Source of the DNA: an uncultured bacterium
Lineage (GTDB): Bacteria > Babelota > Babeliae > Babelales > RVW-14
Direction of reading: 5' to 3'
Assembly (NCBI GenBank): GCA_963759805.1
Contig: CAVXAT010000005.1
Span: 1-64,000 of the forward strand
DNA: 64,000 nucleotides
This document shows, piece after piece, positions 31,511 to 64,000 of this stretch (position 1 is its first letter; every line of letters starts with the position of its first letter). The position numbers were made by a program, and so were the translations under genes. Below the pieces are notes generated by a model that saw only the letters and a program-made list of their open reading frames with translations, had not been told where the DNA came from and did not search any database.

Positions 31511-34138
31511 ATGATAAAAAAATTTTTGATTGGCTTGTTGATATTCAATTTTATTTTGGCAAGCGGCAACGCGATGAATCCAGTCCTAACGCCAGAACAA
31601 ACAAGAATAAGATCATTTAAAATAGGTGGCGAAACAGTTTATCAAATCATTGCTCCAAATGAGAGCTTAATAAAGCTGCAAGGATATGAGCTGGGATTAA
31701 TGCAACAGCTGGCTTGGGTAATGATCCCGCAGATGCATCAAGCATTGCAATGGATTCAACATCCATATGGAGCCATTGAAAACCAAGATTTAATTGATTA
31801 TTTTAGGCATAATGCAGAAGAAGAAAGCTATATCTCGGCTACATGTGGTTTTGGAGCCGCATTTATAGCATACACTTTAACTAATTTATTGAATGGAAAT
31901 CCCAAAATATCTAGGGATGAGATATACAGAGCGTTTTATCCTGAAGTAGATGATCCATTTAATTGGGGGCGGTGGCCTTTTCCTGAGTTAGACCAAGAAA
32001 ATAATGTGTACAAATTTAACTCAGATAAATTTAAAGAATTTTTTAAAAATGCAATTCCAGTTGTTGTAGGATACCGAAGAGATAAGAATCAAGTAAATGT
32101 ATATGAAAAGAATTTATCTTCAGATGAAATAAGTCATATAGTTTCAACTTATCAACCAGCAATATCCGACGTAAAAGATAAAATAGTACTCATAGAAACC
32201 GATTATGATCCGAACATCGAATCCAAAAAGGACACTCTACAAAAAAAAATCAATGCTGTTATAAAGGATTCCTCTGGAAGTAAATTTGTCATTTTTATTT
32301 GTGGTAACAATTTCCAAACAGGTGCACATTGGGTAGCAATTATCATTCGAAAAAATAGTAACAATAATGTAGAAATCTTATATTCTGATACAGCAAATTG
32401 GAAGGTTGACCAGCTTAAGGAGCCTATTTTCCATGTTATTAGTTTAATAAAAAAATTACAAGGTAGCGAAACTTTTGAAGCTTGGATGGAAAAATTAAAG
32501 CGTAATATTGATGCATACATATTTAATGAAGACAGTATGAAAGGCATAGATAAAATAAACAAACTTTATGAAGACTATAAACAAGGTAATGCTGCTGCTA
32601 AAAGTTTAGAAGATTGGTTTAAAGAAAATCTTGAAAACTTAATATCAAACAACCAGCCTAGTAAAGATTTTAGAAACGCTTTGTATGAACATTTTTTAAA
32701 ACCACGGTGCAAAAACTGTGGTAATGTAACTGCTAAACCTATTCCACTCCCTTGTGGAATGGTATTTGGTGAAGATCAAAGACTCACACGAAAAAAGAAT
32801 TTCGATCATTACCTTGTTTGCCAAGATTGTCTAAATAATAAGTTGTTTGACGATAAGGGAAAGAGTGAAAGTACTATTTATTCATGGAAATGTCCTGAGT
32901 GTGGCGGATACGTTACACATAAATTTAAAAGGCTAATTGAATCCGAGGGGTACAGTGGTAACGTAATATTAGCATGCGCAATGTATTATGGACAAGATGA
33001 TAAGGAACAATCACAATTTTCAGATACTTTTTTAGAAAAATTTATATCATCCGATGCCAGGAGTGGTATATCTGTTTATAGAGCCAAAACATATCTAGAA
33101 AGAATTAAACAGGCACAAAAGGATATCAGGCCTAAATTAGCACTCTGTAATTTGGAAGAGGTTCTAAAAAAGCCACTTCTTGGCCAACGGTTAGAAGAGC
33201 TACGAGGCTTGCTAGATTTGCCTGACCTGGGGGACAAGTGGTTTGCTCAACAATTATCAGATCTACTTTTGCAAGAAGAACCAAGCCAACTTGGAGGTAA
33301 AAATGCAGAAACATTAACTCTTAGGCTTCTAGAGCTAAACGCTGATCCAAACAAGATAATTGATAGATTATGTGATTTATCTGATAAAATTGCAAAATTT
33401 GAACTTTACGAATTCATTAAAAATAATCAAGCCAAACTCTTAAAAAATCGAACTTCAAAATTAGTAGAGGTTTTAGATGGGGAAAAAATTGAAACTCTTG
33501 CTAAAGTATCTGCATCCAATAAAAAAGAAAAAATCAGAGAACTAAACGAGCAAAAACAGTCATGGCTAAACGAATTAGCCAAGAATGATTCTGCTATTCA
33601 ATCAATCTTGGGACAGATACACAACAACCATAAATTAAGAGGCAAAGTAGAAGAGTTGGGAAAAATTCCAGCAGGACTGGATGAAGATGGGAAATACACA
33701 GAAAGTCAAATTACAGAAATTATAAAATGGTCAAACCAAAGATGGGAAAATGCAACTAAAGAGCAGCTTCGTAAAATATTGGTGGACGCAATTGAATTGT
33801 TCAGATTATCAAATAATGAGAATATACAAATAAGAAATTCATTAGATATATTAATAAAAAAATTTTGTGAGCATGATAAATCTAAAGAATATTCAGATGA
33901 AGATCTTGCAACCTTAAAAGACCTAAGCATAACTGGCGAGGATTTTGAGAGAAGTCTACCAATTGACATTCCTAGGGAGCGCCAAGAATTACTTAAAACA
34001 AAATTCGAAAACGCGCAACATGCGTCTCCACTTAAAAAAAATCTTCAATTATTAGCAACTCAATTGGAAACTTTAAAGGAAAAGCTTAAAAAATTACAAG
34101 CCAAGTTAGTTTTGTTAAATAACAAGTTACACCAATAG
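31511..34138 (+). CDS. Exported protein: putative cysteine-protease domain, RING-like zinc finger, C-terminal leucine-heptad tag
   Basis: Signal peptide; TCG, HWVAII, YSDT; CKNC..LPCG..HYLVCQDC..CPEC. Confidence 0.7.
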   Translation: MIKKFLIGLLIFNFILASGNAMNPVLTPEQTRIRSFKIGGETVYQIIAPNESLIKLQGYELGLMQQLAWVMIPQMHQALQWIQHPYGAIENQDLIDYFRHNAEEESYISATCGFGAAFIAYTLTNLLNGNPKISRDEIYRAFYPEVDDPFNWGRWPFPELDQENNVYKFNSDKFKEFFKNAIPVVVGYRRDKNQVNVYEKNLSSDEISHIVSTYQPAISDVKDKIVLIETDYDPNIESKKDTLQKKINAVIKDSSGSKFVIFICGNNFQTGAHWVAIIIRKNSNNNVEILYSDTANWKVDQLKEPIFHVISLIKKLQGSETFEAWMEKLKRNIDAYIFNEDSMKGIDKINKLYEDYKQGNAAAKSLEDWFKENLENLISNNQPSKDFRNALYEHFLKPRCKNCGNVTAKPIPLPCGMVFGEDQRLTRKKNFDHYLVCQDCLNNKLFDDKGKSESTIYSWKCPECGGYVTHKFKRLIESEGYSGNVILACAMYYGQDDKEQSQFSDTFLEKFISSDARSGISVYRAKTYLERIKQAQKDIRPKLALCNLEEVLKKPLLGQRLEELRGLLDLPDLGDKWFAQQLSDLLLQEEPSQLGGKNAETLTLRLLELNADPNKIIDRLCDLSDKIAKFELYEFIKNNQAKLLKNRTSKLVEVLDGEKIETLAKVSASNKKEKIRELNEQKQSWLNELAKNDSAIQSILGQIHNNHKLRGKVEELGKIPAGLDEDGKYTESQITEIIKWSNQRWENATKEQLRKILVDAIELFRLSNNENIQIRNSLDILIKKFCEHDKSKEYSDEDLATLKDLSITGEDFERSLPIDIPRERQELLKTKFENAQHASPLKKNLQLLATQLETLKEKLKKLQAKLVLLNNKLHQ

Positions 34139-34163
34139 ATCAAAAAGTAAAAACACAAGCAAT

Positions 34164-35385
34164 CTATATCCCCGGATCATTTGGTTGCAATGAATCCGTT
34201 AAATAATGGATGAATTCAGGTGGAAGATTTTTGCGAAGTTGTTCATCTGATACTTGAGAGGTAAACTCCTCAAATAATCCATAACTGTAGGTATTCCAAA
34301 AAAGAACCGTTTTATCCTTAAGTATGCCTTTATTTGCGTCATCAATTAATGCTGACAATGTTTTTCCAGTATAAGTTGACTCAAGTTTTTTGCCGGTTGC
34401 GCAATACAGTAATGAAATAGCATCAGCTGCCTTTGGCGTAACAGCCGCATACCCATCCCCAACGCAATCATGATTTATCTCTATATCAAGCCCGGGAATT
34501 GCTACCTGAGTTCCATTATTAAAAAGTTGCGCTGTTTCAAAATAAAAAGAGTCATCTACTTCTTTTAAATATTTACCGGTTTTATTCACAAGATCACAAA
34601 GAAACTTTGCTTTGTACTCTGGAGTAAAACTGATGCGAACCGGAATTATTTTACTTTTCAAACCCGCAGCATTTGCCCCGGCCAAAACTCCCGCAGCTGT
34701 TCCACAACTTCCAAGCGTTATATAAATAACATCAGGCTCTTTGATTCCCATCTCTTCTATTTGTTTTTTCAATTCAAAAACTGCATTAACATATCCAATT
34801 GACCCAAGTTCATTAGACCCTCCCATAGGAATAAAATAGTAACCATTTTTATCACAAATCTCCTGTGCATGTTGCTTCCATTTTTTCATTAGTATCAAAA
34901 CATGGGGGTGCATAAATAATTGCTGCACCAAAATATACCATAAGTTTAAGATTACGGATCACAACGCTTGTCTGACGTTGATCATCCAACACAAGAACGG
35001 CCTTCAAACCAACAGCTTTTGCACAAATTGCCGTTTCAAGGGCATGGTTTGATCCTGCACTACCAACAGTACACACTGTTTTATAGCCTTTTTTCAACGC
35101 ATCTGCTAAAAGAAATTCCAATTTTCTCATTTTGTTGCCGGTCAGAATTTTTGCATCACTGCTATATCCATCGTCCTTTATGTATAAGTCTTTTATTCCC
35201 AATTTTTTACTAAGCTCTTCTACCTTAACCAATGGGCTTGGATAGTTACCAAATTTAATATGAGGAATGCTTTTTGCCATTTTGGGATATTTATCAAAAA
35301 GGGGAACATTGGCATGTAGAATTGCATATGGAAACACAAAATTTGCAACAATTATAAAAGAAAAAAATCTTTTGGAAAAATTCAT
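34164..35385 (-). CDS. D-cysteine desulfhydrase / ACC deaminase family PLP enzyme, 1-nt frameshift near 34870-34910
   Basis: LYIKDD, GNKMRKLEFLL, SNHA; then IPMGGSN, GSCGT, LESTYTGK, LFWNT. Confidence 0.85.
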
Positions 35386-35513
35386 CGAACTTCCTTTCAA
35401 AAATACAAAACTAATGTCTGCGCCAGCAACATTTTGACTATAAATAATTTTTTATATATTATCTATCATCAGTTTAAACTGTTCGATAAGAAGCAATCAT
35501 CAAGGATACTTTT

Positions 35514-36413: not shown

Positions 36414-36582
36414 ATATCTCGAAAGAAGTGCCTACCGCCGACACACAAAGCTATTAATGTAAAAATCAGAGCAAATCCCATCTTAATATATTTACATATT
36501 TATATATTTGAATACAAATATATTTTCTGGTATAGTTAAACCCATTTGAATTGAGAAAAAACCCTATAAAAAGGAGCTCTTT

Positions 36583-37115: not shown

Positions 37116-37177
37116 CGTATCAGGAAATACAATGAGGCAAAATAGTTAATATGGAAAAACATTAAGAGGATTTTTAA

Positions 37178-37574: not shown

Positions 37575-38237
37575 TTAATGTTTCTTCTCCGGATTCCATT
37601 TACTTTTTGTTCCACATTTTGGACAAGTAACTTTATTGCAGCCTCCATCTTTAAATAAAGGTCTTTTACATTTTGGGCATGGTCTTGAATTTTCATCAAT
37701 CCAAGCTTTACTTAATTTTGAGGCTTCTTCGGATTTTTTTTCTTCCTCCATTTCTGCGCGTCTTTCTGCCTTTTTACAACTAATTTTAGGATCATGCAAT
37801 CTTAAACATTGGCAGCAATAAGTCTGATGACATTCTGGACATTCTATAATCCTAACTTCCACATCTTCATTTATGAATGCATACAGACAGTTATGGGTTG
37901 GGCAAAGTTTTGAGGCAGAATGCTTTACAAGTTCTAGATATTGAAGTTTTTTCATTATGCTACTATCACTGACTAGACGACCAAGCTCTTCTTGATTTAG
38001 ATATCGAGCACATTCGGGAAGTGGACATTTTGGACTTACACGATTTTCAATGCCAGCCGTAATTATTCCAGAAATGCATTCCAGGCAACATTCATGGCCG
38101 CAGGAGAGTTTGAAAAATGGAGAAGCCCCTTCTTCCTGATAACAAACCGGACACGTAGGACGCACAGCCATAGATGCTATGGATGGTGAACCGAGTGTCA
38201 AAAATATAAAGAACAACGTTTTGGCAAACTTGAACAT
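37575..38237 (-). CDS. Exported RING-IBR-RING (RBR, Ariadne-like) E3 ubiquitin ligase candidate
   Basis: GGAGG RBS, signal peptide, RING1 CPVC..CGH..CLEC..CP..EC, IBR CP..NC..CPEC..CCQC..H..C, Rcat CPKC..KDGGCNKVTC. Confidence 0.88.
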   Translation of the reverse strand: MFKFAKTLFFIFLTLGSPSIASMAVRPTCPVCYQEEGASPFFKLSCGHECCLECISGIITAGIENRVSPKCPLPECARYLNQEELGRLVSDSSIMKKLQYLELVKHSASKLCPTHNCLYAFINEDVEVRIIECPECHQTYCCQCLRLHDPKISCKKAERRAEMEEEKKSEEASKLSKAWIDENSRPCPKCKRPLFKDGGCNKVTCPKCGTKSKWNPEKKH

Positions 38238-39230: not shown

Positions 39231-39980
39231 ATTTATCTAATATTATTTACAAACACACCCAAAATAATTTACGATTTTTCAGTTACCAATAAATCAAATT
39301 TTTTATAAAAGGAGAAATGTTATGCGTATAACACCCAGAAAAATTCTATTTATATTCGCCATCTTCGTATGTACTCAATTATGTTTGCAGACCCCAATTT
39401 CTGCAGCAACATTTACCGTGACAAAAACATCTGATACATATCCCATAGGACAGACAGGACAGTTACGCTGGGCAATTCAACGGGCTAATCAGACCGCCGG
39501 AACAAATCAAATTAATTTTAATATCCCAGGAACTGGCCCTTTTGTTATTCAGCCGGTCCATGATCTTGATGCTATCACTAATCCTGTAATCATTAATGGC
39601 TACAGTCAACCGGGCGCAACGGAAAATACGCTTGCCACCGGCAACAATGCACATTTACTCATTGCCATGTATGGAGCAAACTATGCCACAGGCAATGCAT
39701 ATCAAGGCTCAGGCAACGGCCTATTTTTTTATCAAGGGTCTGATGGTTCTGTTGTAAAGGGTTTAGTTATTAGTGCATGGATCAATAACGGCATTGTTGT
39801 ATACAATGCAAACAATATCAATATAGTTGGAAATTTTATTGGCACAAAGGCAACGGGAACTGCTCAATTAGCAAATCAAACAGGAATATTTATCGAGTCC
39901 GGAAATAATACAACCATTGGATCCTCTATAGTGACCCCCATTGTCAAGACAAATTTTTAACTTATATTTCAGAATTTTTA

Positions 39981-40901
39981 TCAGGCCATTTGTATCCCCA
40001 TTGATTTATTTTGTTGAACGATGATTTTGCTATTACATACAAAAGCCAATGATTCGAAAGTAAAATCAGATTGGTCTACTGCAATGATAGCTCCATAGTA
40101 AACTTCATCTGGTTTTTTATATTCGAGTGATTGGTGAAAGCGTTCTCTATTATAAAAGTTGATATAGTTTTTTATAATTAATCGCGTCTCAGCAATGTTT
40201 TCAAGAACATAAAAACACAGTGCTTCATATTTAATAGTTCGCCAGAATCGTTCAATAATGATGTTGTCTGCCCATCGACCTATTCCATCCATACTAATTT
40301 TGATACCTTCTTTTTCTAAACGAGCAACCCATCTTTCACTTGTAAACTGGCACCCTTGATCACTATTTAAAATCTCAGGCTTACCGAGTACGAGAGCCAT
40401 TTCCAATGCTTCAAGACAAACGTCTGTATCGAGATATGGTGACAATGCCCATCCCATAATCTTGCGACTAAAAACATCGATAAGACAAACCAAATAAACA
40501 AACCCACCTCTTATTTTTACGTATGTGATATCTGTTTTCCAGACTTGGTTTGGGCGGCAAACTCGTAATCCTCTTAAAAGATATTTGTACACCTTGTGTT
40601 CCTTGTTTGGAATGCTAGTTTTTTTATAAGGGGCAACTGCACAAAGACCTGTCAACGTCATTAGCCGCTGTGTTCTTTTAATGTTGTGGTTAAAGCTTTT
40701 TTCGATAAGAACTTCGTGTATTTTTCGATATCCATAAAATGGATGTCTCTCATATTCGTTGCGTATCTCATCCATAATCACCTCGTCTTGGTTGTTGGCC
40801 TTCTTTGGCTTGTAATAAAGGCTACTTCGATTTATACCGAGCAGATCGCATTTTCTGGACAAGTTCAATTTGTTGTTGTGCTCAATCCATTGCTTGCGCA
40901 C
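39981..40901 (-). CDS. IS3 transposase OrfB (DDE)
   Basis: YGYRKI, WKTDITY, NSDQGCQF, DNIIIERFWRTIKYE; -1 frame relative to orfA with a TTTTTTA slippery site near 40931-40937. Confidence 0.95.
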   Translation of the reverse strand: MRKQWIEHNNKLNLSRKCDLLGINRSSLYYKPKKANNQDEVIMDEIRNEYERHPFYGYRKIHEVLIEKSFNHNIKRTQRLMTLTGLCAVAPYKKTSIPNKEHKVYKYLLRGLRVCRPNQVWKTDITYVKIRGGFVYLVCLIDVFSRKIMGWALSPYLDTDVCLEALEMALVLGKPEILNSDQGCQFTSERWVARLEKEGIKISMDGIGRWADNIIIERFWRTIKYEALCFYVLENIAETRLIIKNYINFYNRERFHQSLEYKKPDEVYYGAIIAVDQSDFTFESLAFVCNSKIIVQQNKSMGIQMA

Positions 40902-40909
40902 TTGGATAT

Positions 40910-41188
40910 CTAGCGACTGAGCACTTGTACTAAAAAATTGCGCTCTTCCTTTACTTGTTCAAGGTCTGCCAAAATCTTGTCATATGTTTCTTCTTTTTTA
41001 ACTTTTCTTTTGTCTGCAAAAAGTTCGTTGCCATGCTCTTCTAGGTGTTGCTTCCATGCATATGCTTGGCATGTTGAAATATTAAATTCTCTACAGATGG
41101 TATCAACTGATTTGTCGGCCTTTATCATAGCTAAAGCCACCTTAAGTTTAAGCTTGTCATCATGACTTTTTTTCGTGTCATCACTCAT
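40910..41188 (-). CDS. IS3 OrfA (proximal)
   Basis: KLKVALAMIK..ICREF..YAWK..ERNFL. Confidence 0.88.
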   Translation of the reverse strand: MSDDTKKSHDDKLKLKVALAMIKADKSVDTICREFNISTCQAYAWKQHLEEHGNELFADKRKVKKEETYDKILADLEQVKEERNFLVQVLSR

Positions 41189-41289
41189 GAGAATGCCTTT
41201 CTTGTAAAGCAAATTTTTAGATTTAACATTCTCATGCTAATTCATTATTATTGTCGTTGTACACAGTTTATCCATTTGCGTTTATTGCA

Positions 41290-41565
41290 TTAAAGCGCCC
41301 GCAATAATGACTCACGTTCTACAATAAGCTTGCCTATAATCACATGAAACTTTTCAACATCTAAACTTTTTTTTGCAGCCATTTTTTCACTCGAAAAAAC
41401 TTCAATGCCTCGATCTTCAAGCCGTTTTTTCCATGCATAAATTTGACTTGTCGCTAATGCAAATTCTTGGCATAATTCAGCTATTGGCCTATCAGCCTTT
41501 ATAGCTGCCAATGCAACTTTTAGTTTAAATTTGTTGCTGTGGGTTCTGCTTACTTTGTTACTCAT
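41290..41565 (-). CDS. IS3 OrfA-like paralog (distal)
   Basis: FKLKVALAAIK..LCQEF..IYAWKK..IGKLIVERE. Confidence 0.85.
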   Translation of the reverse strand: MSNKVSRTHSNKFKLKVALAAIKADRPIAELCQEFALATSQIYAWKKRLEDRGIEVFSSEKMAAKKSLDVEKFHVIIGKLIVERESLLRAL

Positions 41566-42501
41566 TTAATGCCCCCCGGGCTCATTGTTATAACTAATAT
41601 TTTTAAAGTACTTATTTTCTCAAGTTGCACTGTCTAGTTTTATGGGGTCAGTATACTCAAGACCCGCAGATCGCAATATTATTGCAGGAAGTTTTTTCTT
41701 TTTTAATGAATCATCATGCATCGTCGCCGATAATTCTCAAGGAACTGTAATCAAAGGAAACTATATCGGAACAAACGCCTCCGGCACTGCCGCGCTTGGC
41801 AACTCTCTTTCCGGAATAACATGCGCTGCATCAAATAATAGTGTTATTGGAGGATCAACACCGGCTGAAAGAAATATTATATCAGGACATGTCATCGTTG
41901 GCATATCTATTGAGAGTTCCTCAAACACACAAATTACGGGAAATTATATCGGAACAGATGCAAGTGGATCTTTGGCATTAGGTAATGCAAATGAAGGAAT
42001 TGGCATAATTGGCAGCGGTCTGGCAAACAGCGCTACCAACAACAGCATCACCGGCAATGTTATCTCAGGAAATTACATCGGCATAACGCTTGGATCAATT
42101 TCATCTCTTGGAGCAAATCAAAATACTATTCAAAACAATTACATAGGAACCGATCACACAGGAAATCTTGCACTTCCAAATAAGTATGGAATTGTCATCA
42201 ATGATAATGGCAATACGATAGGCGGAAACGCTTCTTCAAATCGCAATATTATTGCAGCAAACAGTGTTGGCGGAATTTTAATCTATGGCGGCGCGCAAAA
42301 TAATGTCATCCAGTATAATTACATTGGTCTTAATGCCTCATCTGCCCCTCTGCCAAACGGATATGGAATTCAATTGGGACTTCCCGGCGGAAAGGGTGCT
42401 GCTTCCACAAACTCCATTGCCAATAATTCATTTGGCGGCGGAAATAAGATAATAAATATATATTCATAATCACACTTTTTTATAAAAAGAAAGAAAAAAA
42501 C

Positions 42502-44265
42502 ATGAGACTAAATTTATTTTTTTGTGTCGCTTGTACATTGTTGATCGACACAATATATGCCAATGACTTTCAAGAACAGCCTGTGTTGGGTAATTCTATA
42601 GACAGCCAGTGGATTGTTGTACCAAGAGAGACCAGAATAATTGGGGAATATTCTACGCAAGTAGCTAGTAAAAACTCGCCAGAAGAACTTTGTGAAACCA
42701 CACACAAAAAAACATTTGTACAAAAACCTAATAGACGCAGAGACATCAATCGATTTGGAGAAAAACATCCACTCCCATCTCCTGTCACTGAAGAAAAACT
42801 AGTTTATGAACCCATACCAGAAGATGCAGCCATAAAAATATTACGGTCCACTTCTGCGCAAACAATTGCTTTAAATTTCACTGCTGAAACGGTAGCCAAT
42901 GCTCAAGACCCTTACATTATCCCACCAAATCTTAACGGATGGGTTGGAGCTACGCAGTATGTGCTCATGACCTACAACGTAATACGCAGTTTTAACAAAA
43001 CGACTGGCGCCCCTGATGGAGTTTTGAACATAGATGCTGCCAATTTTTTTGGAGTCTCTGCAAATGACGTTCGTATAGATTATGATAGATTTTCTCAACG
43101 TTGGTTTATGTCATGTGAAGGCATTAATGAAAGCACAGGACAAGTGGGAACGCTTGTGCTTGCAGTAAGCAACGGCAGTACTATTACCAACTCCACCTCC
43201 TGGAGTTTTTACACATTCACCAACTCGCAAGTAATGCCTCAAATTAGACCGCTGGGCAGCGGAGACCTTGATTATCAGCAACTGGCAATAGATCAAAATG
43301 CAGTCTATCTTTCAGTAGATACGTTTGACAAAAACGGTAATTTTAACGGATCCTCGGTTATAGTAATTCAAAAAAGTTCGATTGGGACAAACAATCTGGT
43401 TGCAAAAGTTTTTCACGGCATACTGACATCATCAGAATTTATTTCACCTGCTGACAATTTTGACAGCAATCCTACCTTTGGATATCTTGTTAATTCTTCG
43501 GGAAATCAGTACCCTTCTTCAAATACTTACAACAAGCTCTCTTTCTATCGAATAATTAATCCTGCAAGCACCAACCCATCATTGAGTACTTTAATCTCCA
43601 TAACAGTCCCCAAATATACCGATCCGGCAAACGCCCCATACAAGGGCAATCTTTTTTCATCTGCAACCTTTTTGCAAACGAGCGGCAGCATGATGAGCGC
43701 TTGCCACGTGCGCAAACATCAATTATACGTATGTCATAATATACAAGTTAATCGATCAGGTAATGCAAGCACTTCCGGCGATCGCGTGGGAGTTCGCTGG
43801 TATCAATTTGATTTGACGGGTGATGCGACCGGAAATGGTAGGGGTTCAGAAAAAAGTACAACCGTACCTGCACTTGTTCAATCAGGAACTCTTTTTGACA
43901 GCACCTCGATAAGCTCGCCACTCTTTTACTTTATTCCGGCAATTATGACAAACAAAAACAGGGATCTTGTAATAGCATGCTCTTGCTCCGGAGCTAACAA
44001 CTATCCTAATGTTGTTTATGCAGGAAGAAAGGCTACCGATCCTAAAGGCATTTTGCGCACGCCTGTAATGATAACAAATAGTTCGTACCCATACAATTTT
44101 GGACCATTTATGGATCCTTCAAATGGCAATATTGGACAACGCTGGGGAGATTTGTCCTCGCTGTGTCCAGACCCAATTAATGATCTTGATATTTGGGCAA
44201 CGCAAGAATTTGCGGCGGTACAAAATGGATGGGGAGTTCAGGTAACAAAATTAACGCCTGCATAA
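42502..44265 (+). CDS. Exported protein, probable beta-propeller
   Basis: Signal peptide; YDRFSQRWF, DYQQLAID, RWGDLSSL.PDP. Confidence 0.65.
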   Translation: MRLNLFFCVACTLLIDTIYANDFQEQPVLGNSIDSQWIVVPRETRIIGEYSTQVASKNSPEELCETTHKKTFVQKPNRRRDINRFGEKHPLPSPVTEEKLVYEPIPEDAAIKILRSTSAQTIALNFTAETVANAQDPYIIPPNLNGWVGATQYVLMTYNVIRSFNKTTGAPDGVLNIDAANFFGVSANDVRIDYDRFSQRWFMSCEGINESTGQVGTLVLAVSNGSTITNSTSWSFYTFTNSQVMPQIRPLGSGDLDYQQLAIDQNAVYLSVDTFDKNGNFNGSSVIVIQKSSIGTNNLVAKVFHGILTSSEFISPADNFDSNPTFGYLVNSSGNQYPSSNTYNKLSFYRIINPASTNPSLSTLISITVPKYTDPANAPYKGNLFSSATFLQTSGSMMSACHVRKHQLYVCHNIQVNRSGNASTSGDRVGVRWYQFDLTGDATGNGRGSEKSTTVPALVQSGTLFDSTSISSPLFYFIPAIMTNKNRDLVIACSCSGANNYPNVVYAGRKATDPKGILRTPVMITNSSYPYNFGPFMDPSNGNIGQRWGDLSSLCPDPINDLDIWATQEFAAVQNGWGVQVTKLTPA

Positions 44266-44267
44266 AC

Positions 44268-45329
44268 CTACAACACGCTCTTCGCCAATTTTATAAGCTC
44301 AGAGCATAAGTTACTAAGGTCTTTAGGGGAAACAAAAAGATTGAATTTTATACCATGAAGAAAACGCAGCTCCAATTTATTTAGCTCCTCTATACTAACT
44401 TTACCAACTTCGGCATAAACTTTGTTCCAGAAAGGTCGGTCAATGCACCATTTAGCAGCCAAAACCATTATTGCCAAAAATGTTTTGAAATCCATCGAGA
44501 TGTTATCAGTAAAAATATTTTTACCATTCAGTTCACTCAACCTTTGAATGTATATAAGAGCTACCAAGTAACAAACAGGAGGACATTTAAAGTGTTGTTT
44601 TATATGTTGTAAATATTGAATTGTTGGGATAATATAGCCAGCACTACTTTTAATTTTTACTCCGCCCTTTTCAATCATTTCCCTAATTTTTTCAAAAGCA
44701 AAAAGATGAATGCTGCTGAATTCATTATAAATACATGCCGGATTATTAATTGCAAAATGGAGATCCGCACCATGATCCAAAAGAACTTTTACAATTCCAT
44801 ACTTTCCATTCTTTGCAGCCAAAAGTAGAGGTGTTAATCCATGCAAATTGTGTATTGGAAATTCTATTACAGCATCAACATTTGCACCTGCGTCCAAGAG
44901 AATTTGCACAACATTTTCATTACCTGAAATTACAGCATAATGAAGAGCTGTAAATCCGTAAAATAAATGAAATCGTGTTGTAATTCTTAAATTGATATTT
45001 CCGCCTGACTTTAAAAATCTAGAGATAAGATCTATTCTGTTATCTTTTATAGCTAAAAAAAGCTCATCAAGACTTAGTTGATCCGGACTTACTTGAAGAC
45101 TATCAGGACTTATTTGAAGGCTATCAGGACTTATTTGAAGACTATCGGGACTCATTTGCAAGACTGATTTAATTTTCTGTCTTTCTGGTTTAACGTTAAT
45201 TAGCGCCTCTTGCGGATCATTTTCCAACAACACCTCGCTAGATTCCAATTGTCTTTTCATTGAAAAAACAGGAAGCACACCAACAGTTGAAAGTAGTAAA
45301 AAAATAGAAATAAATTTGTTAAATTTCAC
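44268..45329 (-). CDS. Exported ankyrin-repeat protein with PHO80/PREG-type cyclin domain
   Basis: GGAGG RBS plus GTG, signal peptide, ankyrin repeats, then YLQHI..LVALIYIQRL..LAAKW..D..NKVYAEVG..ELNKLELRFL..FNLFV. Confidence 0.85.
   Translation of the reverse strand: MKFNKFISIFLLLSTVGVLPVFSMKRQLESSEVLLENDPQEALINVKPERQKIKSVLQMSPDSLQISPDSLQISPDSLQVSPDQLSLDELFLAIKDNRIDLISRFLKSGGNINLRITTRFHLFYGFTALHYAVISGNENVVQILLDAGANVDAVIEFPIHNLHGLTPLLLAAKNGKYGIVKVLLDHGADLHFAINNPACIYNEFSSIHLFAFEKIREMIEKGGVKIKSSAGYIIPTIQYLQHIKQHFKCPPVCYLVALIYIQRLSELNGKNIFTDNISMDFKTFLAIMVLAAKWCIDRPFWNKVYAEVGKVSIEELNKLELRFLHGIKFNLFVSPKDLSNLCSELIKLAKSVL
45075..45161 (-). repeat. 21-bp tandem repeat, four copies
   Basis: Encodes QMSPDSL-QISPDSL-QISPDSL-QVSPDQL. 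Confidence 0.9.
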
Positions 45330-45582
45330 AAAAATAACCTCCCAATTCAATTTTAAGTTAAAAAAAGCAGAAACAAATAGCTAATTTTTCTTAGCTAGAT
45401 TAAGATTAACACATTCAGCAACAATTACAAGTAGAATTTACTTTTTACGCTTTTTATTAAATTACACGTTTTTTTCGACATAATTCTTGATAAAAACCAA
45501 TGTTTCAATAATATAAAGCGTACTGTGTAAAAACATATAAGGTAAAAACATATAAGTAAGATATCCTCAGCATCCAGGCAAC

Positions 45583-46833
45583 ATGAAAGAGCCACACATG
45601 AGAAAGCTTTTCTTAACAACACTTTGCATATCCAGCTTGTTTTATTATTCCAACAGTCAGGCAAAATCCACACAAACAAAGTCCATACAAGCAAAACCCA
45701 CGCAAGTCAAACCCAAAAAAATTGTTGTGCTGACAAGCAAAGGCGGCAATGGACACATGGCCGCTTGCAGCGTTTTAAAAGATGCCCTGCCTGACTGTGA
45801 AATCAAATTGGCGGATCCAATTAATGATACATTTAGCAGTATACTGGATTATGCAAAATGGTATGGAAAATTTTTACAAAACAATTGGATTAGGACCTCA
45901 AATTTTATTGCCAGATATCCTGGCGAGATGATTATGAGATTTAAATCCAGCGGTATTAAAAGGCAAATTACAAAGATCCTTGAGCAAGAAAAGCCCGACT
46001 TATTGATTTCTGTAATCCCATTGATCAATTACCCGGCTGCCTGTGCCGCGGAGCGTTATGGAATCCCATTTATGCTCATCACACTTGATGCCGATCTTGA
46101 ACTATGGCTTTCAAATATGAAGAAGTGCCGCAAACACGGTTTTCTTAAAAATAATAATTTTGTCATAACTGTTCAGAAAAAAACTCCCCACATTGTGCAT
46201 CAGCTAAATCGCAAATGCATTCCAATGCCATGCATTCATGAAGTTGGAGCTCCTTTGCGTAAAGACTTTTATACCCCAAAAGACACAAAAACAATTCGTA
46301 AGGAATGGAACATCCCCGCAAACAAAAAAGTTGTTATGCTCATGCGCGGTAGCACCGGCTCAGACAAGATGATTGAGTACGTAAAAACACTTGTGCAAAA
46401 TGATAATCAGATTCATCTTTTAGTCTGCGTAGGAAGAAACACAAAAATTATACCAAAACTTAATCACATAAAAACCAACGATCGTGTTACATTTTCTATC
46501 ATTCCATTCACCCCCAAAATACCGGATTTGATGGCCATTTCTGATCTATTGATTACACAGCCAACTCCAAATGTTTGCAACGAAGCACTGCACATGAAAT
46601 TACCTATTCTCATTGATCTGACCTCGACATGCCTTTTTTGGGAAACGCCAACAATTGATTGGATCAAACTTCGTGGCTGCGGCAAGGAATTTAAAAGAAT
46701 GAGCCAACTTAATAACCTGGTTGGTGAATATATCAATAAAAAGAAAACTTGCCTTACAGAAACAGGGACCTCCATTCCTGACTTTAATACTGAAATACAC
46801 AAGCTTGTTATGGGATTGATAAAAAAGGCATAA
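45583..46833 (+). CDS. MGDG-synthase / UgtP-like GT28 glycosyltransferase with signal peptide
   Basis: GGNGHMAA, KPDLLISVIP, GAPLRKDF, VCVGRN, LMAISDLLIT. Confidence 0.82.
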   Translation: MKEPHMRKLFLTTLCISSLFYYSNSQAKSTQTKSIQAKPTQVKPKKIVVLTSKGGNGHMAACSVLKDALPDCEIKLADPINDTFSSILDYAKWYGKFLQNNWIRTSNFIARYPGEMIMRFKSSGIKRQITKILEQEKPDLLISVIPLINYPAACAAERYGIPFMLITLDADLELWLSNMKKCRKHGFLKNNNFVITVQKKTPHIVHQLNRKCIPMPCIHEVGAPLRKDFYTPKDTKTIRKEWNIPANKKVVMLMRGSTGSDKMIEYVKTLVQNDNQIHLLVCVGRNTKIIPKLNHIKTNDRVTFSIIPFTPKIPDLMAISDLLITQPTPNVCNEALHMKLPILIDLTSTCLFWETPTIDWIKLRGCGKEFKRMSQLNNLVGEYINKKKTCLTETGTSIPDFNTEIHKLVMGLIKKA

Positions 46834-46846
46834 ATTTTTAAATATT

Positions 46847-49800
46847 TCATTTAAATTCTCGAATGCGTTTATTCGGATGTAACCGGTATGGAGTTAATGC
46901 TTGTTTAATTTTTGCAGCAATGGCGGCTAGAGCAATGTGAACGGGATCTGCGTCATTTGGATTTCCAACCAATCCCTTGTATACAATAGAAAGCAAAACC
47001 GCATATCTTATCGCGTCAGCATGATTTGTAATGGGTGTGGATATCCCATTAAGTACGACATCAAACTCCTCATCACTGTAAAAAAATTTCAGTGTCTTTT
47101 CTCTCGTCTGACTAAAAACGTAGACAACAACAGGACACTTCGGATCATCATTAAACATTATAATCGGCTTTTCCTTTGTCAAAATACCTATTGACTCTTT
47201 ACGAATATTTTCTGTTTTCAATGGAAATGGATAATCGTGTAATTCAGCATACCGTATCACACCGGGTAAATCACTTTTATCCTTTGTACCATATCCGGAT
47301 GCATCACAGATCAAATGAAGATTTACCCTGCGCCGCAGCAGAGGCGGAACCGGTAAGTTAAATTTATGACCGGCATCGGTCAGTTGCAAGAAAGGTTGCT
47401 CTCTTAATGGGGGTATAATTCCTGATACATGATACAAAGGATTACCAAAATACCCAGGCTGTAAAGGTATTTTATCCTTATCCTGTAATCCAGTATCCTT
47501 ACCAACCTGTGCACCACCAAAAAATAATTGTCCCAGGACCCCTGCTTGCGGATCCAATAAATTATCGATTGTAGGTTTATAATAAGAATAAATCATACGA
47601 ACAACAGTTCCAGCAACGCCTTGAATGGCATTTGTCTTTTTATTCAGCTCCAGAAATAGGCGTTCTTTATCGATAGCAAATGCAGACCCCCATGTTCCCA
47701 TCAGGTACCAAAGTGGCGGCTCGGGATGTAACGTTGCAATAGCGCCATTATCAAAATTAGCCCATGCATATTCCGGCTTGGTCCACACCCCTAACTGTTC
47801 ACTCCCAACTTCATAAGGAGAAAATTCATGCCACCAAAATTTATCTTCTGCTTCCTCATCTACTGTTTTTGCCTGCTTTCTTTCCTCCTCCGAACATACA
47901 CGCCCAACAGCAGTGGCTATAGGAAACGGATATTTAAGTGATTGCAGCTGGTTGTCACGAATACTCGATAGCTTTAAAACATTGAAAGGCAATTCAGCTA
48001 AAAAACCTCGGTACAGCAAAAATCCATAAAAATCAACAAGCGACAGAGAAGCTCCCGTATCGCTGTGAAATTTAACAACGCCCGCAAGATTACTCAAATC
48101 CTCCTGACTCAACGGACGTGAAAAATCTTTTAATTGCTGTTTTATTTTATTAACAAAATCATCATAAGGAGCTTTTTCAGCATCATATGCAAGGTAAGGG
48201 AACAGCATCCATGTTGAACCGGAAAGAGTTGTCATATAGGCTACAGCATCAAATAACCCCATTTTTTTTAATTCTCCAACAAAACCTAATGTCGCAATCT
48301 GGGCACGGCATCCACCACCGCTACATGCAACCCCTATTTTGGGGGAAGAAGATTCGAGAACTTTATGTAATAGCGCAATTTCCCCTGGCGTAAGCATATT
48401 GCTGCTCTTGTCAACAAAGTTATGCAAACAAGGCACTACCTTTTGAGCTTGGCGCTTATCTATAAATTGATTTTCTTCAACACAGATATCGCCTACGTTT
48501 CTAATAGGGTCTTTAATCGTTTCTGGCAAGAATACGTTATTAAGTTCTTGCTCAACCTTATCCCATCCAGGACAAACATCGTTACGTAAATCTTCCGGCT
48601 TTAGCTTTGCAGCCAAATAGGTTAAAATAAATATCGGCAGCACCTCATCCGGCGCCCAATCCAACGCATTAATAATGAAATTGTATGCATTTGGAGAGCC
48701 TTGAAACACGGAACCTGGGGTGTCCAGTCTGGCAGCAACTCTTTCTCCAAAAACGATATCGGATAACTGGCGCTTCAAAGTTGTATCGCTTTTCAAAATT
48801 TCACTAATTTGTTCCTTTTGTAGCAGCTTTTTTTCCGGAATCCGATCAATAATATCGGCAAGCAAATTTCTATCAAAAAATACCGGCGCACCCATATTTT
48901 TGATTGATTCTTTTAAAAGCTCTATCTGTTGCATAAGAAATGATTTTTCTAAATATCCCCCATAATAGGCAGCAAGCACTGCTACAGACTGAACCATCCA
49001 TTCGGTCATAGCTCCAACTAATGGAATCATTCCTCTTGTTTGCTCAACAGCCTGACCAACATGCTGCTGGGCCACCCCAATGCCTTTGATCATCTCATTT
49101 ACAATATCAAATAAAGCAGAGCTTTTATATTGATTTACATGGTCCCTATTTAACTTGATGTATTTAACAATCTTATCGAATTCAGCCTCAGGGTAAGATC
49201 TAAATATACCGGGATCTGCATATCCTAACTGTTCAGAACAAAAATCTAATTCACGGGCCAATTGTTCATCTATGTTGTATGAAATCCTATCGGGAATTGA
49301 ATAATACCACATGGTTCCATCACACCATTCGTGAACAATATTACCACCCTCATGTTCAACAGCTCTGTTTAAAAAAACCGGTGGAACAGAGGGCTTGACA
49401 GGCTCCTCTGGCGATCCAGTTGGCTTGGCAGCCGGTGCAACAGATGGTTTGCCAGGTTTTGTAAAAACACAAGCCAGGTCAATATTCAAATAATAGTGCT
49501 GATCAATACAGGCAATGGTTTTCGGTAATGAACCCAAAACACACAGAAGATCTCCACCGATACTAAAGCTTGTCGCTGGACAACTGCTTCCATCATATGT
49601 AAAACATTCAATATTTACAATTTTCAACCAATTTCGATTTTCATCAAAACAAGACGCTATTTTGCGCAGCGTCTGGAGGTGAACTTCTTTGGAATAAAAG
49701 TTATAAATTCTATGAGAAACACAAGGCATTAGACCTCTTTTTTTCTCAGGTGTATCTCTAAGCGCAGGAGGCGTTGCCGGATTAAGCAGTATAATTGAAT

Positions 49801-50461
49801 GCACAGTGATTTTAGCTTCATTTAATTTCGCCATAAGCTGCTCAGTTGCTGTCTTATTGGAACTAATGACTATCGACCGGACAACGTCTTGGTGTTTCAA
49901 TGATCTAATAACATCAACGGCATTAGTTTTGCAATCAAAGCGAACCTCAAACGGAGCCCGACCCGGCTGGGGACCTTCATTGATTTGTTGTCGCAAAGAA
50001 GTACAAAAAGGATTCTGTCCTTGGGCATAGGGAGGAAGATCGACATTTAAAAATATAACATGAATAGAGCTCCCTTCTTGCAAACCCTCGACAAGGGTGC
50101 GAGCAAAAGACCCGTTTACAGCCTCTTCAGCCCTCCTTGGAGCCAGCATCATTTCCTCATATTTCATTGGATTATAACTATCAATCATTAAACCATGCAG
50201 GATCGAGGTGGCCATATAGGTTTGTTCTTCAGGAGGCGGGGTTGGTACGGGATGTAGCACCGGTACCGCTACCGTTCCCAATTTTCCTTGTAATTCACCA
50301 AGCTTGCCTTGTAATCCATTCAATTTATTTTTGAGCTCTTGCAGAGACGTTTTCAGAGTCCCCAACTTTTCTTTGAGCGGATCCACCCCCATTCCCACTG
50401 CAAAATTGCTTGAAAGTGCAATTAAAATAAAAAGTCTCATCATCAAAAATTTACACTTCAT
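46847..50461 (-). CDS. Exported protein with cPLA2 / lysophospholipase catalytic domain and N-terminal leucine-heptad tag
   Basis: SGGGCRA, TLSGSTW, PFPIATA, EFSPYEVG, GTWGSAFA, LTDAG..NLPVPPLL. Confidence 0.88.
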   Translation of the reverse strand: MKCKFLMMRLFILIALSSNFAVGMGVDPLKEKLGTLKTSLQELKNKLNGLQGKLGELQGKLGTVAVPVLHPVPTPPPEEQTYMATSILHGLMIDSYNPMKYEEMMLAPRRAEEAVNGSFARTLVEGLQEGSSIHVIFLNVDLPPYAQGQNPFCTSLRQQINEGPQPGRAPFEVRFDCKTNAVDVIRSLKHQDVVRSIVISSNKTATEQLMAKLNEAKITVHSIILLNPATPPALRDTPEKKRGLMPCVSHRIYNFYSKEVHLQTLRKIASCFDENRNWLKIVNIECFTYDGSSCPATSFSIGGDLLCVLGSLPKTIACIDQHYYLNIDLACVFTKPGKPSVAPAAKPTGSPEEPVKPSVPPVFLNRAVEHEGGNIVHEWCDGTMWYYSIPDRISYNIDEQLARELDFCSEQLGYADPGIFRSYPEAEFDKIVKYIKLNRDHVNQYKSSALFDIVNEMIKGIGVAQQHVGQAVEQTRGMIPLVGAMTEWMVQSVAVLAAYYGGYLEKSFLMQQIELLKESIKNMGAPVFFDRNLLADIIDRIPEKKLLQKEQISEILKSDTTLKRQLSDIVFGERVAARLDTPGSVFQGSPNAYNFIINALDWAPDEVLPIFILTYLAAKLKPEDLRNDVCPGWDKVEQELNNVFLPETIKDPIRNVGDICVEENQFIDKRQAQKVVPCLHNFVDKSSNMLTPGEIALLHKVLESSSPKIGVACSGGGCRAQIATLGFVGELKKMGLFDAVAYMTTLSGSTWMLFPYLAYDAEKAPYDDFVNKIKQQLKDFSRPLSQEDLSNLAGVVKFHSDTGASLSLVDFYGFLLYRGFLAELPFNVLKLSSIRDNQLQSLKYPFPIATAVGRVCSEEERKQAKTVDEEAEDKFWWHEFSPYEVGSEQLGVWTKPEYAWANFDNGAIATLHPEPPLWYLMGTWGSAFAIDKERLFLELNKKTNAIQGVAGTVVRMIYSYYKPTIDNLLDPQAGVLGQLFFGGAQVGKDTGLQDKDKIPLQPGYFGNPLYHVSGIIPPLREQPFLQLTDAGHKFNLPVPPLLRRRVNLHLICDASGYGTKDKSDLPGVIRYAELHDYPFPLKTENIRKESIGILTKEKPIIMFNDDPKCPVVVYVFSQTREKTLKFFYSDEEFDVVLNGISTPITNHADAIRYAVLLSIVYKGLVGNPNDADPVHIALAAIAAKIKQALTPYRLHPNKRIREFK

Positions 50462-59609: not shown

Positions 59610-59624
59610 AATATGATAATCCAT

Positions 59625-59686
59625 GGATCCTGAAACCCGCCTACGCCCTGTCGTGGCTACGGCGAGGCAGGCAAGTTCAGGATGAC
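59625..59686. repeat. Type-C palindrome interrupted by a 36-bp type-B unit (59636-59671)
   Basis: GGATCCTGAAA[CCCGCCTACGCCCTGTCGTGGCTACGGCGAGGCAGG]CAAGTTCAGGATGAC. Confidence 0.8.
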
Positions 59687-59701
59687 AGGGTTCGAAAATA
59701 T

Positions 59702-59732
59702 AAAAAGGGAGTTGGTTACAACTCCCTTTTTT
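59702..59732 (+). terminator. Rho-independent terminator
   Basis: AAAAAGGGAGTTG-GTTA-CAACTCCCTTTTTT. Confidence 0.8.
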
Positions 59733-59800
59733 GTTATACTCAATTCTAGAAATTTTCGTTATTGATAGTCAAACTCAATGGAACTGCGACAGGAGAAGAG

Positions 59801-60754: not shown

Positions 60755-61248
60755 GAATCTACTTGAAAAATTTATATTTAGGCTAAAAAATCATTTTATC
60801 TAAAAAAATTTAATCTTGATCCTTATTTTTTTAATCGATACACCGAAACAATCAGCATATCCGACAATATTACAGTTATTTTTTTAAAAAAAGTAGAGCA
60901 TTTATCTTGAAAAATAAATTTGCATGAGCCTGCAAGCTTCCCCAAAAACAGACCCACCGCAACGCCGTCCCAATCGTACATTTAACACTGCCGCATACAA
61001 GTTACCAACAAAATTGTTGGTAACTTCATTTTCATGATGACAAATGAGCCTATTCAAAATCATTACTTTAAAATGTATCGAAACGATACATTTTAAAGAC
61101 AGCGCATCAGGTAACATTTTTGACCCGTTTTACATAATAATTACAAAAACGACACCTATTTTCATAAAATGTTGTTAGTCAAAAATGCTTAAATTTTGAA
61201 ATATAAAAATAATTTGGTAAGCTATAAAAGCTTAACTAGAGGGTTTTT

Positions 61249-62688: not shown

Positions 62689-62723
62689 CTAAAACATCTT
62701 TATACTTCTTGGGGGTTGCTGTT

Positions 62724-64000
62724 ATGAAATTTAAATTAAATTTGATTTTTATCGCTATTTTCGCGCTAGCCCACTTTCTGCCCATAAGCAAACAATTATT
62801 TTCAATGGATTTAAGGTATTTTGGCGAATTACATATTCCAGGACCAAGAGAATACTACTCTGACCTTGATCTACTCAATGACAAGTTGTTGCAATCAATG
62901 ACAATTTACGGCTGTGTATCTCGCCATATGCACAGTCAAGATTTTTTTTACCTCACAAATAAATTCATACAAAATACATCCAGCCTGTATAGTAATTCAC
63001 CTTGGCTTTACAATACAAATATTAACGATCAATTAAGCAATATTTGGAAACAGAATTTCAATGGAGAAGAGGAATTAGCAATATCAACATTCCCATGTAT
63101 CGCAAAATTAATTGTGCCACAAAATACGCGTGTGGCAATTATTGGAGACATTCATGCAGAGATGAGTACAGTAAAGGCACTTTTTTACTCCCTGAAAAAT
63201 AAATATTTTCTTAATGAATTTATGCAGATGCCTGATAACTGTCGAATCATTTTTCTGGGAGATTACACGGACAGAGGTGACTACAATTTACAAGTTTTAT
63301 GTTCAATTCTAATTTTATCGGCTAAGAACCCCGACAAAGTTTTTCTACTGAAGGGAAATCATGAATCCCTCATCTCCCAAGAAAAGAGTAAAATAATAAG
63401 TGAAATTAAAGAAATCGAACGAAATGAAACGGTTGTGAATATACTGATAAGCAATATCATCAGCGTCTACGAACTAATGCCCACAGCAATGTTTCTTGGA
63501 TTTCAAGGGCAAAGACAAACACGGTTCTATCTCCTTGCACATGGTGGCCCGGACATCAGATATGATTATACTGATTTCTTAAATCTACACGAAAATCCCT
63601 GTTTCTGGATGTTAACAGCTGACGATTCTTTAAAAACGCTTCAATCACGAAAATGGTTAGAATGTATCTATAAATGCACTAGAGAATACAAAGATATTAG
63701 CAAAGAATATGAAGATGTCAGCAAAAAATGTGAAGATATCCGAAATTCATTAACATTACATATAAATGAAAGATTAGATCAAGGATTTTTATGGAATGAT
63801 ATTATAACTTATCCTTGCTCCCTTCCAGTCTTAAATAGTATACTTAGAGGAGAAACATGTATCGAATTAAATCCTAAATTTGTTCGCAATTTTTTGGAAT
63901 CTTTTGCAACTGAGAATTCAGAGATTGTCGGAGTAATTCGTGCACATCAACATTTTATGGGTAAAATCATGGCTAAAAAAGCTGGTTTAAATTTAGGGGA
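62724..64000 (+). CDS. Exported PPP-family Ser/Thr phosphatase-like metallophosphoesterase (runs off the window; absent from the ORF track)
   Basis: Manual translation from ATG 62724: signal peptide, GDIHA (63144), GDYTDRG, GNHE, HGG, LWND, IRAHQ in one frame. Confidence 0.85.
   Translation, partial: MKFKLNLIFIAIFALAHFLPISKQLFSMDLRYFGELHIPGPREYYSDLDLLNDKLLQSMTIYGCVSRHMHSQDFFYLTNKFIQNTSSLYSNSPWLYNTNINDQLSNIWKQNFNGEEELAISTFPCIAKLIVPQNTRVAIIGDIHAEMSTVKALFYSLKNKYFLNEFMQMPDNCRIIFLGDYTDRGDYNLQVLCSILILSAKNPDKVFLLKGNHESLISQEKSKIISEIKEIERNETVVNILISNIISVYELMPTAMFLGFQGQRQTRFYLLAHGGPDIRYDYTDFLNLHENPCFWMLTADDSLKTLQSRKWLECIYKCTREYKDISKEYEDVSKKCEDIRNSLTLHINERLDQGFLWNDIITYPCSLPVLNSILRGETCIELNPKFVRNFLESFATENSEIVGVIRAHQHFMGKIMAKKAGLNLG

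Follow-up and report, generated by a model that had tools for sequence, protein, structure and literature searches.

Leader-bearing eukaryote-type enzymes of a Babelales genome and their probable export to the host

We analysed a stretch of 64,000 nucleotides (the window) from an uncultured bacterium of the Babelales. This stretch covers the first 64 kb of a contig of 131.6 kb (CAVXAT010000005.1, here C5), and the genome (G000) comprises 1.497 Mb in 21 contigs and is 88.7% complete. Babeliales (Dependentiae/TM6, lately 'Babelota') are obligate intracellular parasites of protists. Five genes from position 31,511 onwards encode an orphan protein, an RBR ubiquitin ligase, an ankyrin-cyclin fusion, a cPLA2-type lipase and a PPP phosphatase, each beginning with a hydrophobic leader. 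These proteins probably belong to a genome-wide repertoire of eukaryote-type enzymes that are exported by Sec and then by a machine resembling the type II secretion system (T2SS) or by vesicles, and that act in the host. On this reading, they would pass unfolded through the inner membrane via Sec, be cut by signal peptidase I, traverse a periplasm lacking recognisable disulfide formation, and leave by a T2SS-like secretin machine or in outer-membrane vesicles. Having arrived in the host cytosol, they would use host E1/E2 enzymes, cyclin-dependent kinases (CDKs), phosphoproteins and membrane lipids. The phylum is named Babelota in the available part of PMC12644861.

Leaders and eukaryote-type enzymes

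Leaders were called over 1334 greedy open reading frames (ORFs) of G000 with our own crude n-h-c heuristic, which is not a trained predictor. It flagged 540 ORFs (40%), of which 372 had no further membrane segments, and a stricter form flagged 204. All five proteins passed the strict form. Most of their leaders consist of a hydrophobic core of 9-15 residues followed by a small-x-small site, and the leaders were conserved in relatives, in agreement with the first-pass annotation, which had seen five signal-peptide proteins within about 33 kb. The pattern extended to the whole genome. Leaders were found on 26 of 30 eukaryote-type ORFs (19 ankyrin, 3 cyclin, 2 RBR, 2 cPLA2, 3 PPP, 1 USP and the orphan, with the ankyrin-cyclin fusion counted once) vs 514 of 1304 other ORFs (odds ratio 10, p 3e-7). 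The four leaderless members were three ankyrin fragments or mis-starts and a second RBR. Among the housekeeping ORFs of the window, 3/20 were flagged.

A small-x-small-Met junction ended the leader in 70 of 339 leader ORFs, and control windows of equal length further in gave 16, 6 and 10 of 339. The junction Met was present in all five proteins and in 14/26 of the eukaryote-type leader proteins, vs none of nine housekeeping envelope proteins. A Shine-Dalgarno (SD)-like motif preceded 46 of the 70 leader starts, 222 of 501 leaderless ORF starts and only 4 of the 70 junction Mets. The last value indicates that the junction Met is not a separate start, and a dual translation start at this position was rejected. 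Taken together, the leaders look real: they appear to be translated, conserved and enriched on eukaryote-type proteins, and by sequence they are of the Sec/signal peptidase I type. The Met at the leader junction is apparently new.

The RBR protein matched Pfam IBR in two stretches (E 1.8e-8), and its residues 24-212 aligned to residues 181-369 (RING1-IBR-Rcat) of human ARIH1 (E 2.4e-15). A RING1 of the C3HC4 type is followed by the IBR, and the Cys of a 'GGC' motif falls, as counted in the alignment, on ARIH1 Cys357, which we take to be the Rcat active site. The protein ends 13 residues past the fourth Cys of the first Rcat zinc site, and the second zinc site is absent. Since this short end is kept in two relatives (G190 and G168), it represents a conserved variant rather than a break. 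Compared with ARIH1, the protein lacks the Ariadne domain and the second Rcat zinc site and carries a bacterial leader. The orthologue in G190, a genome of the same genus, is 62% identical and keeps the leader; the G168 contig stops before the N-terminus of the gene, and its leader is not readable there. IBR domains were found in 34 of the 201 genomes of our phylum sample (G000 included; the genomes shown are all of the same order or closer), with up to 13 matches in one, and all five RBR ORFs read from other Babeliales genomes start with a leader. No bacterial RBR turned up in the available portions of the literature on RBRs and bacterial effectors, or on Dependentiae and ubiquitin ligases. 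Judged from its sequence, the mature protein would comprise 197 residues without auto-inhibitory parts and could serve as a convenient minimal model for the RBR mechanism. Two of the RBR proteins from other Babeliales (L016 and L018) carry acidic/Ala/Ser stretches behind the leader that by eye resemble ubiquitin-interacting motifs. At C1:353852-356085 of G000, a protein with a leader, a RING-H2 and ankyrin repeats adjoins a leaderless RBR of 315 residues.

The ankyrin-cyclin protein matched Ank (E 2e-18) and Cyclin PF08613 (E 3e-15; 4.5e-16 for the domain alone). A profile of eight bacterial members of the cyclin family matched PHO80 (4e-17), Pcl10 (1.5e-15) and cyclin-Y (2e-12). PF08613 was detected in 7 of the 201 genomes and was strong only in the four genomes of the genus sample (G000 counted in; 1-5 each) and in one other genus of the family. 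Four of five cyclin ORFs of relatives carry a leader. A search of the genome contigs with one cyclin as query found no relative. Outside the clade, the closest named relatives were those of oomycetes, plants (U/P-type), the ciliate Ichthyophthirius and protist transcriptomes, with 35-45% identity over the box. In a quick tree the bacterial branches were very long, and 6/8 bacterial rows grouped weakly. The box is alike by sequence to the PHO80/Pcl/cyclin-Y and U/P-type cyclins of eukaryotes, and it is here fused to ankyrin repeats and a bacterial leader. We know of no described bacterial counterpart of PHO80 or U/P-type cyclins. These cyclins are almost confined to the genus and apparently new for the phylum. 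Cyclin genes stand beside cPLA2 genes at three places in two species (window 44268-50461; G000 C10:3293-6368; G190 C13:1082-8561).

The 1204-residue lipase matched PLA2_B (E 5.7e-22) and human cPLA2 (1cjy, E 3.8e-18). The GGGxR, GxSGS and DxG motifs (Ser/Asp dyad) align to 1cjy, and seven Babeliales sequences keep them without change. Neither this protein nor a 629-residue paralogue showed a C2 domain; Pfam gave PLA2_B only on both. Relative to human cPLA2-alpha, the catalytic motifs are thus kept, the N-terminal C2 is not found and a bacterial leader is added. PLA2_B occurred in 157 of the 201 genomes, with 1-7 matches each, and 5/5 cPLA2 ORFs in other Babeliales genomes start with a leader (five of six loci parsed). 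When a cPLA2-gene profile was run over one genome per prokaryote species, 75 loci were obtained, the closest being 76-78% identical to the second cPLA2 gene of G000. Most of these loci were titled Candidatus Babeliales, Candidatus Dependentiae or candidate division TM6; the remainder included some auto-labelled 'uncultured Pseudomonadota' metagenome-assembled genomes (MAGs) and one 1.6-kb contig in a Methylococcaceae bin. These relatives, and the failure to find SctV in G000, led us to reject a chlamydial origin. No account of cPLA2-type genes turned up in the available portion of the literature on Dependentiae and phospholipase.

The PPP phosphatase matched Metallophos (E 4e-12), and its top solved relatives were the eukaryotic BSU1, PP1, PP5 and calcineurin (E 3e-10 to 1e-6). 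The match spans mainly the N-terminal half of the catalytic domain. The motifs GDxHG, GDxVDRG and GNHE read GDIHA, GDYTDRG and GNHES. Two leader-bearing PPP paralogues stand in tandem on contig C8. As a group, these enzymes are homologous to their eukaryotic prototypes (ARIH1, PHO80/Pcl/cyclin-Y, cPLA2-alpha, PP1/BSU1) at E 1e-10 to 1e-18, and they retain the catalytic motifs.

The first-pass annotation had assigned all four of these domains, and Pfam and solved relatives confirm them. Its fifth call, a 'protease-RING' for the 875-residue protein, could not be verified. Pfam gave sub-threshold matches only (RickCE_cat, E 0.004-0.005, 17.6 bits vs a cut-off of 27), and no RING model matched, the best being zf-C3HC4_3 at E 0.28. 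In the Cys/His pattern, 17 residues separate the third Cys from the His, vs 1-3 in a RING cross-brace. Homologues are rare (two in 5.8 billion proteins; one representative in 1.84 billion); they are 48-50% identical and conserve the leader. Cys112, His273, Asp293 and the eight-ligand Cys/His pattern are invariant in three sequences, which is only suggestive. In a low-confidence model, Cys112 starts a predicted helix, and His273 and Asp293 lie on adjacent predicted strands. The AlphaFold models of the full-length protein (three-row alignment, pLDDT 49.0) and of the N-terminal domain alone (48.5) are too poor to use at these values. A Foldseek search of the PDB with the N-terminal-domain model gave nothing at E <= 0.001, with SseL at E 0.033 as a hint only; the ESM Atlas gave no usable match for residues 23-500, and a PDB sequence search gave nothing under E 0.4. 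The order Cys-His-Asp is unlike that of the CE clan. With Cys placed ahead of His and weak hints of RickCE and SseL, the protein brings to mind the permuted Ulp1-like peptidases of Babela, and it is possibly a papain-like or permuted CE-type peptidase.

Export route and competing readings

SecY and prepilin peptidase were found in 4/4 genus genomes, and signal peptidase I in G000. Three secretins, two GspE/PilB ATPases, two GspF/PilC proteins, a PilA-like pilin and three TolC-like genes are also present in G000. Two sets resembling a T2SS or type IV pilus (T4P) can be recognised among them. The second GspF/PilC gene heads an operon of gspF-G-H, two pseudopilins and a gspK-like gene (C5:118-123 kb), and a PilM/GspL-like gene adjoins a GspD-like secretin. 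In this set with T2SS order, GspF scored 354 bits, and the GspD-like secretin scored 257 bits vs 126 for PilQ. The machinery fits the Sec plus T2SS-like route that the first-pass annotation had proposed. The GspF/PilC gene that it had listed in the window is present, but 29 kb separate it from the first of the five genes, and its position does not connect it with them.

Type III and type IV secretion systems (T3SS, T4SS) are probably not the delivery route, as the annotation had also inferred. SctV/FHIPEP was not found in G000 and exceeded the cut-off in 1/201 phylum genomes, and VirB4 was found in 0/201. The one FHIPEP (SctV/FlhA) match, at G052 C11:179248-181099 (E 5e-129), contains one TGA. 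The phage-type sheath, TssC/VipB and TatC were each found in 0/4 genus genomes. In addition, DsbA, DsbB, VKOR and Thioredoxin_4 were not found in G000, and DSBA exceeded the cut-off in 1/201 phylum genomes. Given that no recognisable disulfide-forming system was found, zinc fingers and catalytic cysteines could stay reduced in the periplasm. The near-absence of DsbA in the phylum is apparently new.

Several observations weigh against export of these enzymes to act in the host. First, the heuristic has known errors (the Rossmann fold of Ugd, a mis-started Ffh) and flags 540 of the 1334 ORFs. Second, the second RBR (C1:355138-356085) is complete and has no leader, and the RBR of the window, without its second Rcat zinc site, is not assured of ligase activity, to judge from its sequence. 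Third, a lipase present in 157/201 genomes looks more like a core nutritional function than a signalling one. Fourth, the T2SS-like components all fall below the NCBIfam equivalog cut-offs and overlap with type IV pilus models, and we know of no substrate signal for the T2SS. Absence from G000 alone is also weak, given its completeness. Finally, few extracellular proteins were predicted in activated-sludge MAGs (mean 15 per MAG, with Dependentiae, Patescibacteria and Elusimicrobiota pooled), according to the available part of PMC11495043.

An alternative that we consider unlikely, if worth weighing, keeps the Sec step and has the outer membrane crossed by vesicles, a TolC-type system or another route, with the T2SS-like machine perhaps making pili only. 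The components are as near to the PilB, PilC, PilQ and PilA models as to those of Gsp, and three TolC-like genes are at hand. However, one set has T2SS order and best matches (GspF, GspG, GspH, GspK-like and GspD-like), and the substrates of type I secretion systems normally have no Sec leaders, which counts against a TolC-type route. Putative vesicles budding early in infection, which would suit this alternative, are described in the available part of the Chromulinavorax study (Deeg 2019, PMC6561590).

It is rather doubtful that the exported proteins stay in the periplasm, at the surface or in vesicles and serve nutrition from host lipids and phosphorylated compounds. The near-core distribution of the cPLA2-type genes would agree with such a role, as would a second exported family, the PAF-acetylhydrolase-type lipases. 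Chromulinavorax is described, in the part of the report available, as having no lipid biosynthesis and using host lipids (PMC6561590). The RBR, however, would need ubiquitin, E1/E2 and ATP, the cyclin a CDK and the USP ubiquitin conjugates. None of these is in the periplasm, yet these proteins have leaders of the same kind. Even so, harvesting host lipids may be the chief role of the near-universal cPLA2 genes; found in about four-fifths of the sampled genomes, they may explain the lipid supply of bacteria that reportedly make no lipids.

We give little credence to the view that the hydrophobic stretches are uncleaved inner-membrane anchors, or eukaryotic ER signals that work after delivery. 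Some cores are indeed long (about 20 residues in the PAF-acetylhydrolase paralogues), and the heuristic cannot separate an anchor from a cleaved peptide, but most of the five have the short core followed by a small-x-small site, and an RBR or cyclin facing the periplasm would be without partners. That the leaders are mis-called 5' extensions, or that the contig is a chimera with eukaryotic DNA, is extremely improbable and was rejected: AT-rich DNA does tend to encode Phe, Ile, Leu and Lys, and a Met does stand right behind many leaders, but the leaders are conserved between homologues of 50-62% identity and preceded by SD-like motifs, introns are absent, GC is even across the window (0.32-0.41), synteny is kept with a sister species (in G190, one contig carries both the RBR orthologue and orthologues of housekeeping genes from the window), and paralogues occur in 4/4 genus genomes.

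Dependentiae are widespread protist parasites with no genetics and few cultures, and they seem to control the host without injection machines. In Legionella and other amoeba-associated bacteria, host-acquired ankyrin, U-box/F-box, lipase and phosphatase effectors act on ubiquitin and lipid signalling; Legionella delivers them by the Dot/Icm T4SS with C-terminal signals. The proteins described here differ in their N-terminal Sec leaders, and in the lack of VirB4 across the phylum sample. In Chlamydiae, which also have a T3SS carrying most effectors, CPAF and cHtrA take a two-step route. These are Sec-dependent proteins of an intracellular bacterium that were found in the host cytosol, according to the available part of PMC3107777. 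Unlike the chlamydial case, no T3SS was found here, and CPAF and cHtrA are bacterial-type proteases, not eukaryote-derived signalling enzymes.

Export of such proteins has been put forward for two other members of the phylum. In Babela massiliensis (Pagnier et al. 2015, PMC4378268), as far as the available part of the paper goes, signal peptides mark most ankyrin proteins, whose probable destination after secretion is the amoebal cytoplasm. Also described there are a RING protein, an F-box protein, three C19 ubiquitin hydrolases that are secreted, and circularly permuted Ulp1-like peptidases with signal peptides; a T2SS was the sole secretion system detected, with T2SS export predicted. That part describes no RBR/IBR ligase, PPP phosphatase, coiled-coil module or Met junction; 'cyclin' and 'phospholipase' occur 0 times in the main text, and the supplements may hold domain tables. 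In Yeoh, 'phospholipase', 'ubiquitin' and 'signal peptide' each occur 0 times. For Chromulinavorax destructans (Deeg et al. 2019, PMC6561590), the available part reports signal peptides on 44% of coding sequences and on 78% of 98 ankyrin proteins, and proposes Sec export and vesicles. Our crude count for G000 is comparable (540/1334 ORFs, 40%), with leaders on 16 of 19 ankyrin ORFs. Chromulinavorax belongs to a different family, and that part of the report does not describe any ubiquitin ligases, cyclins or cPLA2. Given that the Sec plus T2SS reading was already published in 2015 and 2019, the inference of the first-pass annotation is a rediscovery. The strategy is known; its new members are apparently the leader-bearing minimal RBR, the PHO80-type cyclins, the near-core cPLA2 and the PP1-like phosphatases. 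With this window, the published idea of Sec-exported effectors gains specific enzymes that can be tested.

A coiled-coil module and the methionine junction

A Leu/Lys heptad coiled coil of 36-40 residues, with invariant leucines in 3-4 spacing, recurs in 14 of the 1334 ORFs, which are otherwise unrelated (E <= 2.4e-8; nothing further up to E 1). It stands at the extreme C-terminus in eight (the orphan, a USP/UCH deubiquitinase and six others), directly after the leader in four (the cPLA2, a 1544-residue PPDK_N protein and two ORFans) and internally in one; a second C1 ORF was unplaced. Pfam gave generic coiled-coil rows only, below cut-offs. The module was present in 13-18 copies per genome in 4/4 genus genomes and in nine and two copies in two other genera of the family; none of 179 genomes from other families yielded a match. 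It is apparently new and specific to the genus and two related genera. A three-copy complex prediction reached a median of 0.37 (mark 0.42) and made no call either way. The USP/UCH (C19) deubiquitinase that ends in the module carries a leader and is encoded just beyond the window (C5:72816-74474; PF00443, E 4e-29).

The PAF-acetylhydrolase-type gene of the window begins, at 28891, exactly at the junction Met, and upstream of it lies a decayed leader with two stop codons. Its paralogues at C9:6338, C15:3861 and C1:138226 (66-69% identical) retain the leader.

The first-pass annotation had spoken of targeting signals of the system's own, and these may have a basis in the module and the Met junction. 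Tentatively, an effector 'address code' belonging to the genus could lie atop the Sec leader, made up of the module as a tag and the retained-Met junction, with the loss of DsbA enabling export. The module might then be a tag by which effectors dock or are sorted, read by a partner that they share (for example, a secretion pilot, a factor that loads vesicles or a target in the host). The junction could mark where leaders were grafted 5' onto once-cytosolic, host-derived genes, and its Met was perhaps selected, as it would give the cleaved effector a stabilising N-terminal Met against the host N-degron machinery. The phylum-wide loss of DsbA-type oxidation would permit Sec export of eukaryote-type zinc-finger and cysteine enzymes. 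The module, the Met junction and the lack of DsbA make effector exit, and survival in the host, assayable in E. coli and in vitro.

Genomic arrangement and other genes of the window

The five genes lie on both strands, scattered among housekeeping genes, insertion sequences and toxin-antitoxin pairs (Table 1). The intervening genes encode RNase HII, MurE, UDP-glucose dehydrogenase, glycosyltransferases and SurA-like chaperones; two toxin-antitoxin pairs, a beta-helix gene disrupted by an insertion sequence and a split pyridoxal phosphate (PLP) enzyme gene are also found there. Eight ORFs of the window were matched on contig C2 of G190, where the housekeeping genes are 74-87% identical. The ankyrin protein there is 37% identical with no match to the cyclin half, and the 1204-residue cPLA2 is absent between the glycosyltransferase and rnhB. 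The 'coherent toolkit' of the first-pass annotation was not borne out by this arrangement: in a species of the same genus, the syntenic slot lacks the 1204-residue cPLA2 and the cyclin half. The gene sets used for clustering statistics were defined after looking. On this post-hoc basis, 14 of 40 candidate effector ORFs lie on the window contig, whose share of the genome is 8.8% (3.5 expected; binomial p 4e-6), nine more lie in C1:288-357 kb (1.8 expected), and five effector-type genes lie in 32.5 kb vs 0.65 expected (Poisson p 6e-4). The five genes are members of a genome-wide, fast-evolving repertoire concentrated on the contig, not an operon or island.

Table 1. Coordinates of the genes and modules discussed (window positions unless a contig is given)
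Feature	Position	Strand	Basis or remark
GspF/PilC-type platform protein, one of two paralogues	1343..2491	-	T2SSF E 6.5e-50
677-aa ankyrin-repeat protein with hydrophobic leader, just upstream of the five genes	25409..27442	+	
PAF-acetylhydrolase-type lipase, former leader with two in-frame stops	28702..30309	+	Pfam, paralogue comparison
875-aa orphan: leader, Cys/His/Asp domain, 8-ligand Cys/His zinc region, long helical part, C-terminal coiled-coil module	31511..34138	+	
Coiled-coil module at C-terminus of 875-aa protein	34016..34135	+	
220-aa minimal Ariadne-type RBR ubiquitin ligase with leader	37575..38237	-	Pfam IBR and ARIH1 alignment
Beta-helix (NosD-like) exported-protein gene split by insertion sequence	39322..42469		transposase ORFs 39981-41212 (-)
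587-aa leader-bearing protein without Pfam family	42502..44265	+	
360-aa protein: leader, short Ser/Pro repeats, ankyrin repeats, PHO80/U/P-type cyclin box	44268..45350	-	Pfam
1204-aa protein: leader, coiled-coil module, about 600 aa without Pfam family, cPLA2-type (PF01735) lipase domain	46847..50461	-	Pfam, 1cjy
Coiled-coil module directly after leader of 1204-aa cPLA2	50270..50383	-	
PP1-like PPP phosphatase with leader, 507 aa	62709..64000, on to 64232 on the contig	+	Metallophos
Other module copies, same contig	C5:74364-74471, C5:76677-76793, C5:84838-84957, C5:125443-125562, C5:129040-129153		
Further module copies, other contigs	C21:12537-12656, C1:322691-322795, C2:93033-93149; also on C15, C9, C3		

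Four further observations concern neighbouring genes. An extra orfA-like fragment (41290-41565) lies within the span of the split beta-helix gene, beyond the transposase ORFs. PriA (4497-6537, minus strand) is represented by two overlapping ORFs, an N-terminal one at 5830-6537 and a C-terminal one at 4497-5912, which may reflect a frameshift or an assembly error. Similarly, a leader-bearing, PLP-enzyme-like gene (34164-35400, minus strand) is split into two overlapping ORFs (34852-35400 and 34164-34931). Finally, the nucleoside diphosphate kinase at 10255-10758 (plus strand) begins with a hydrophobic stretch of about 20 residues, with the NDK domain starting at residue 39, and the enzyme may be exported or membrane-anchored.

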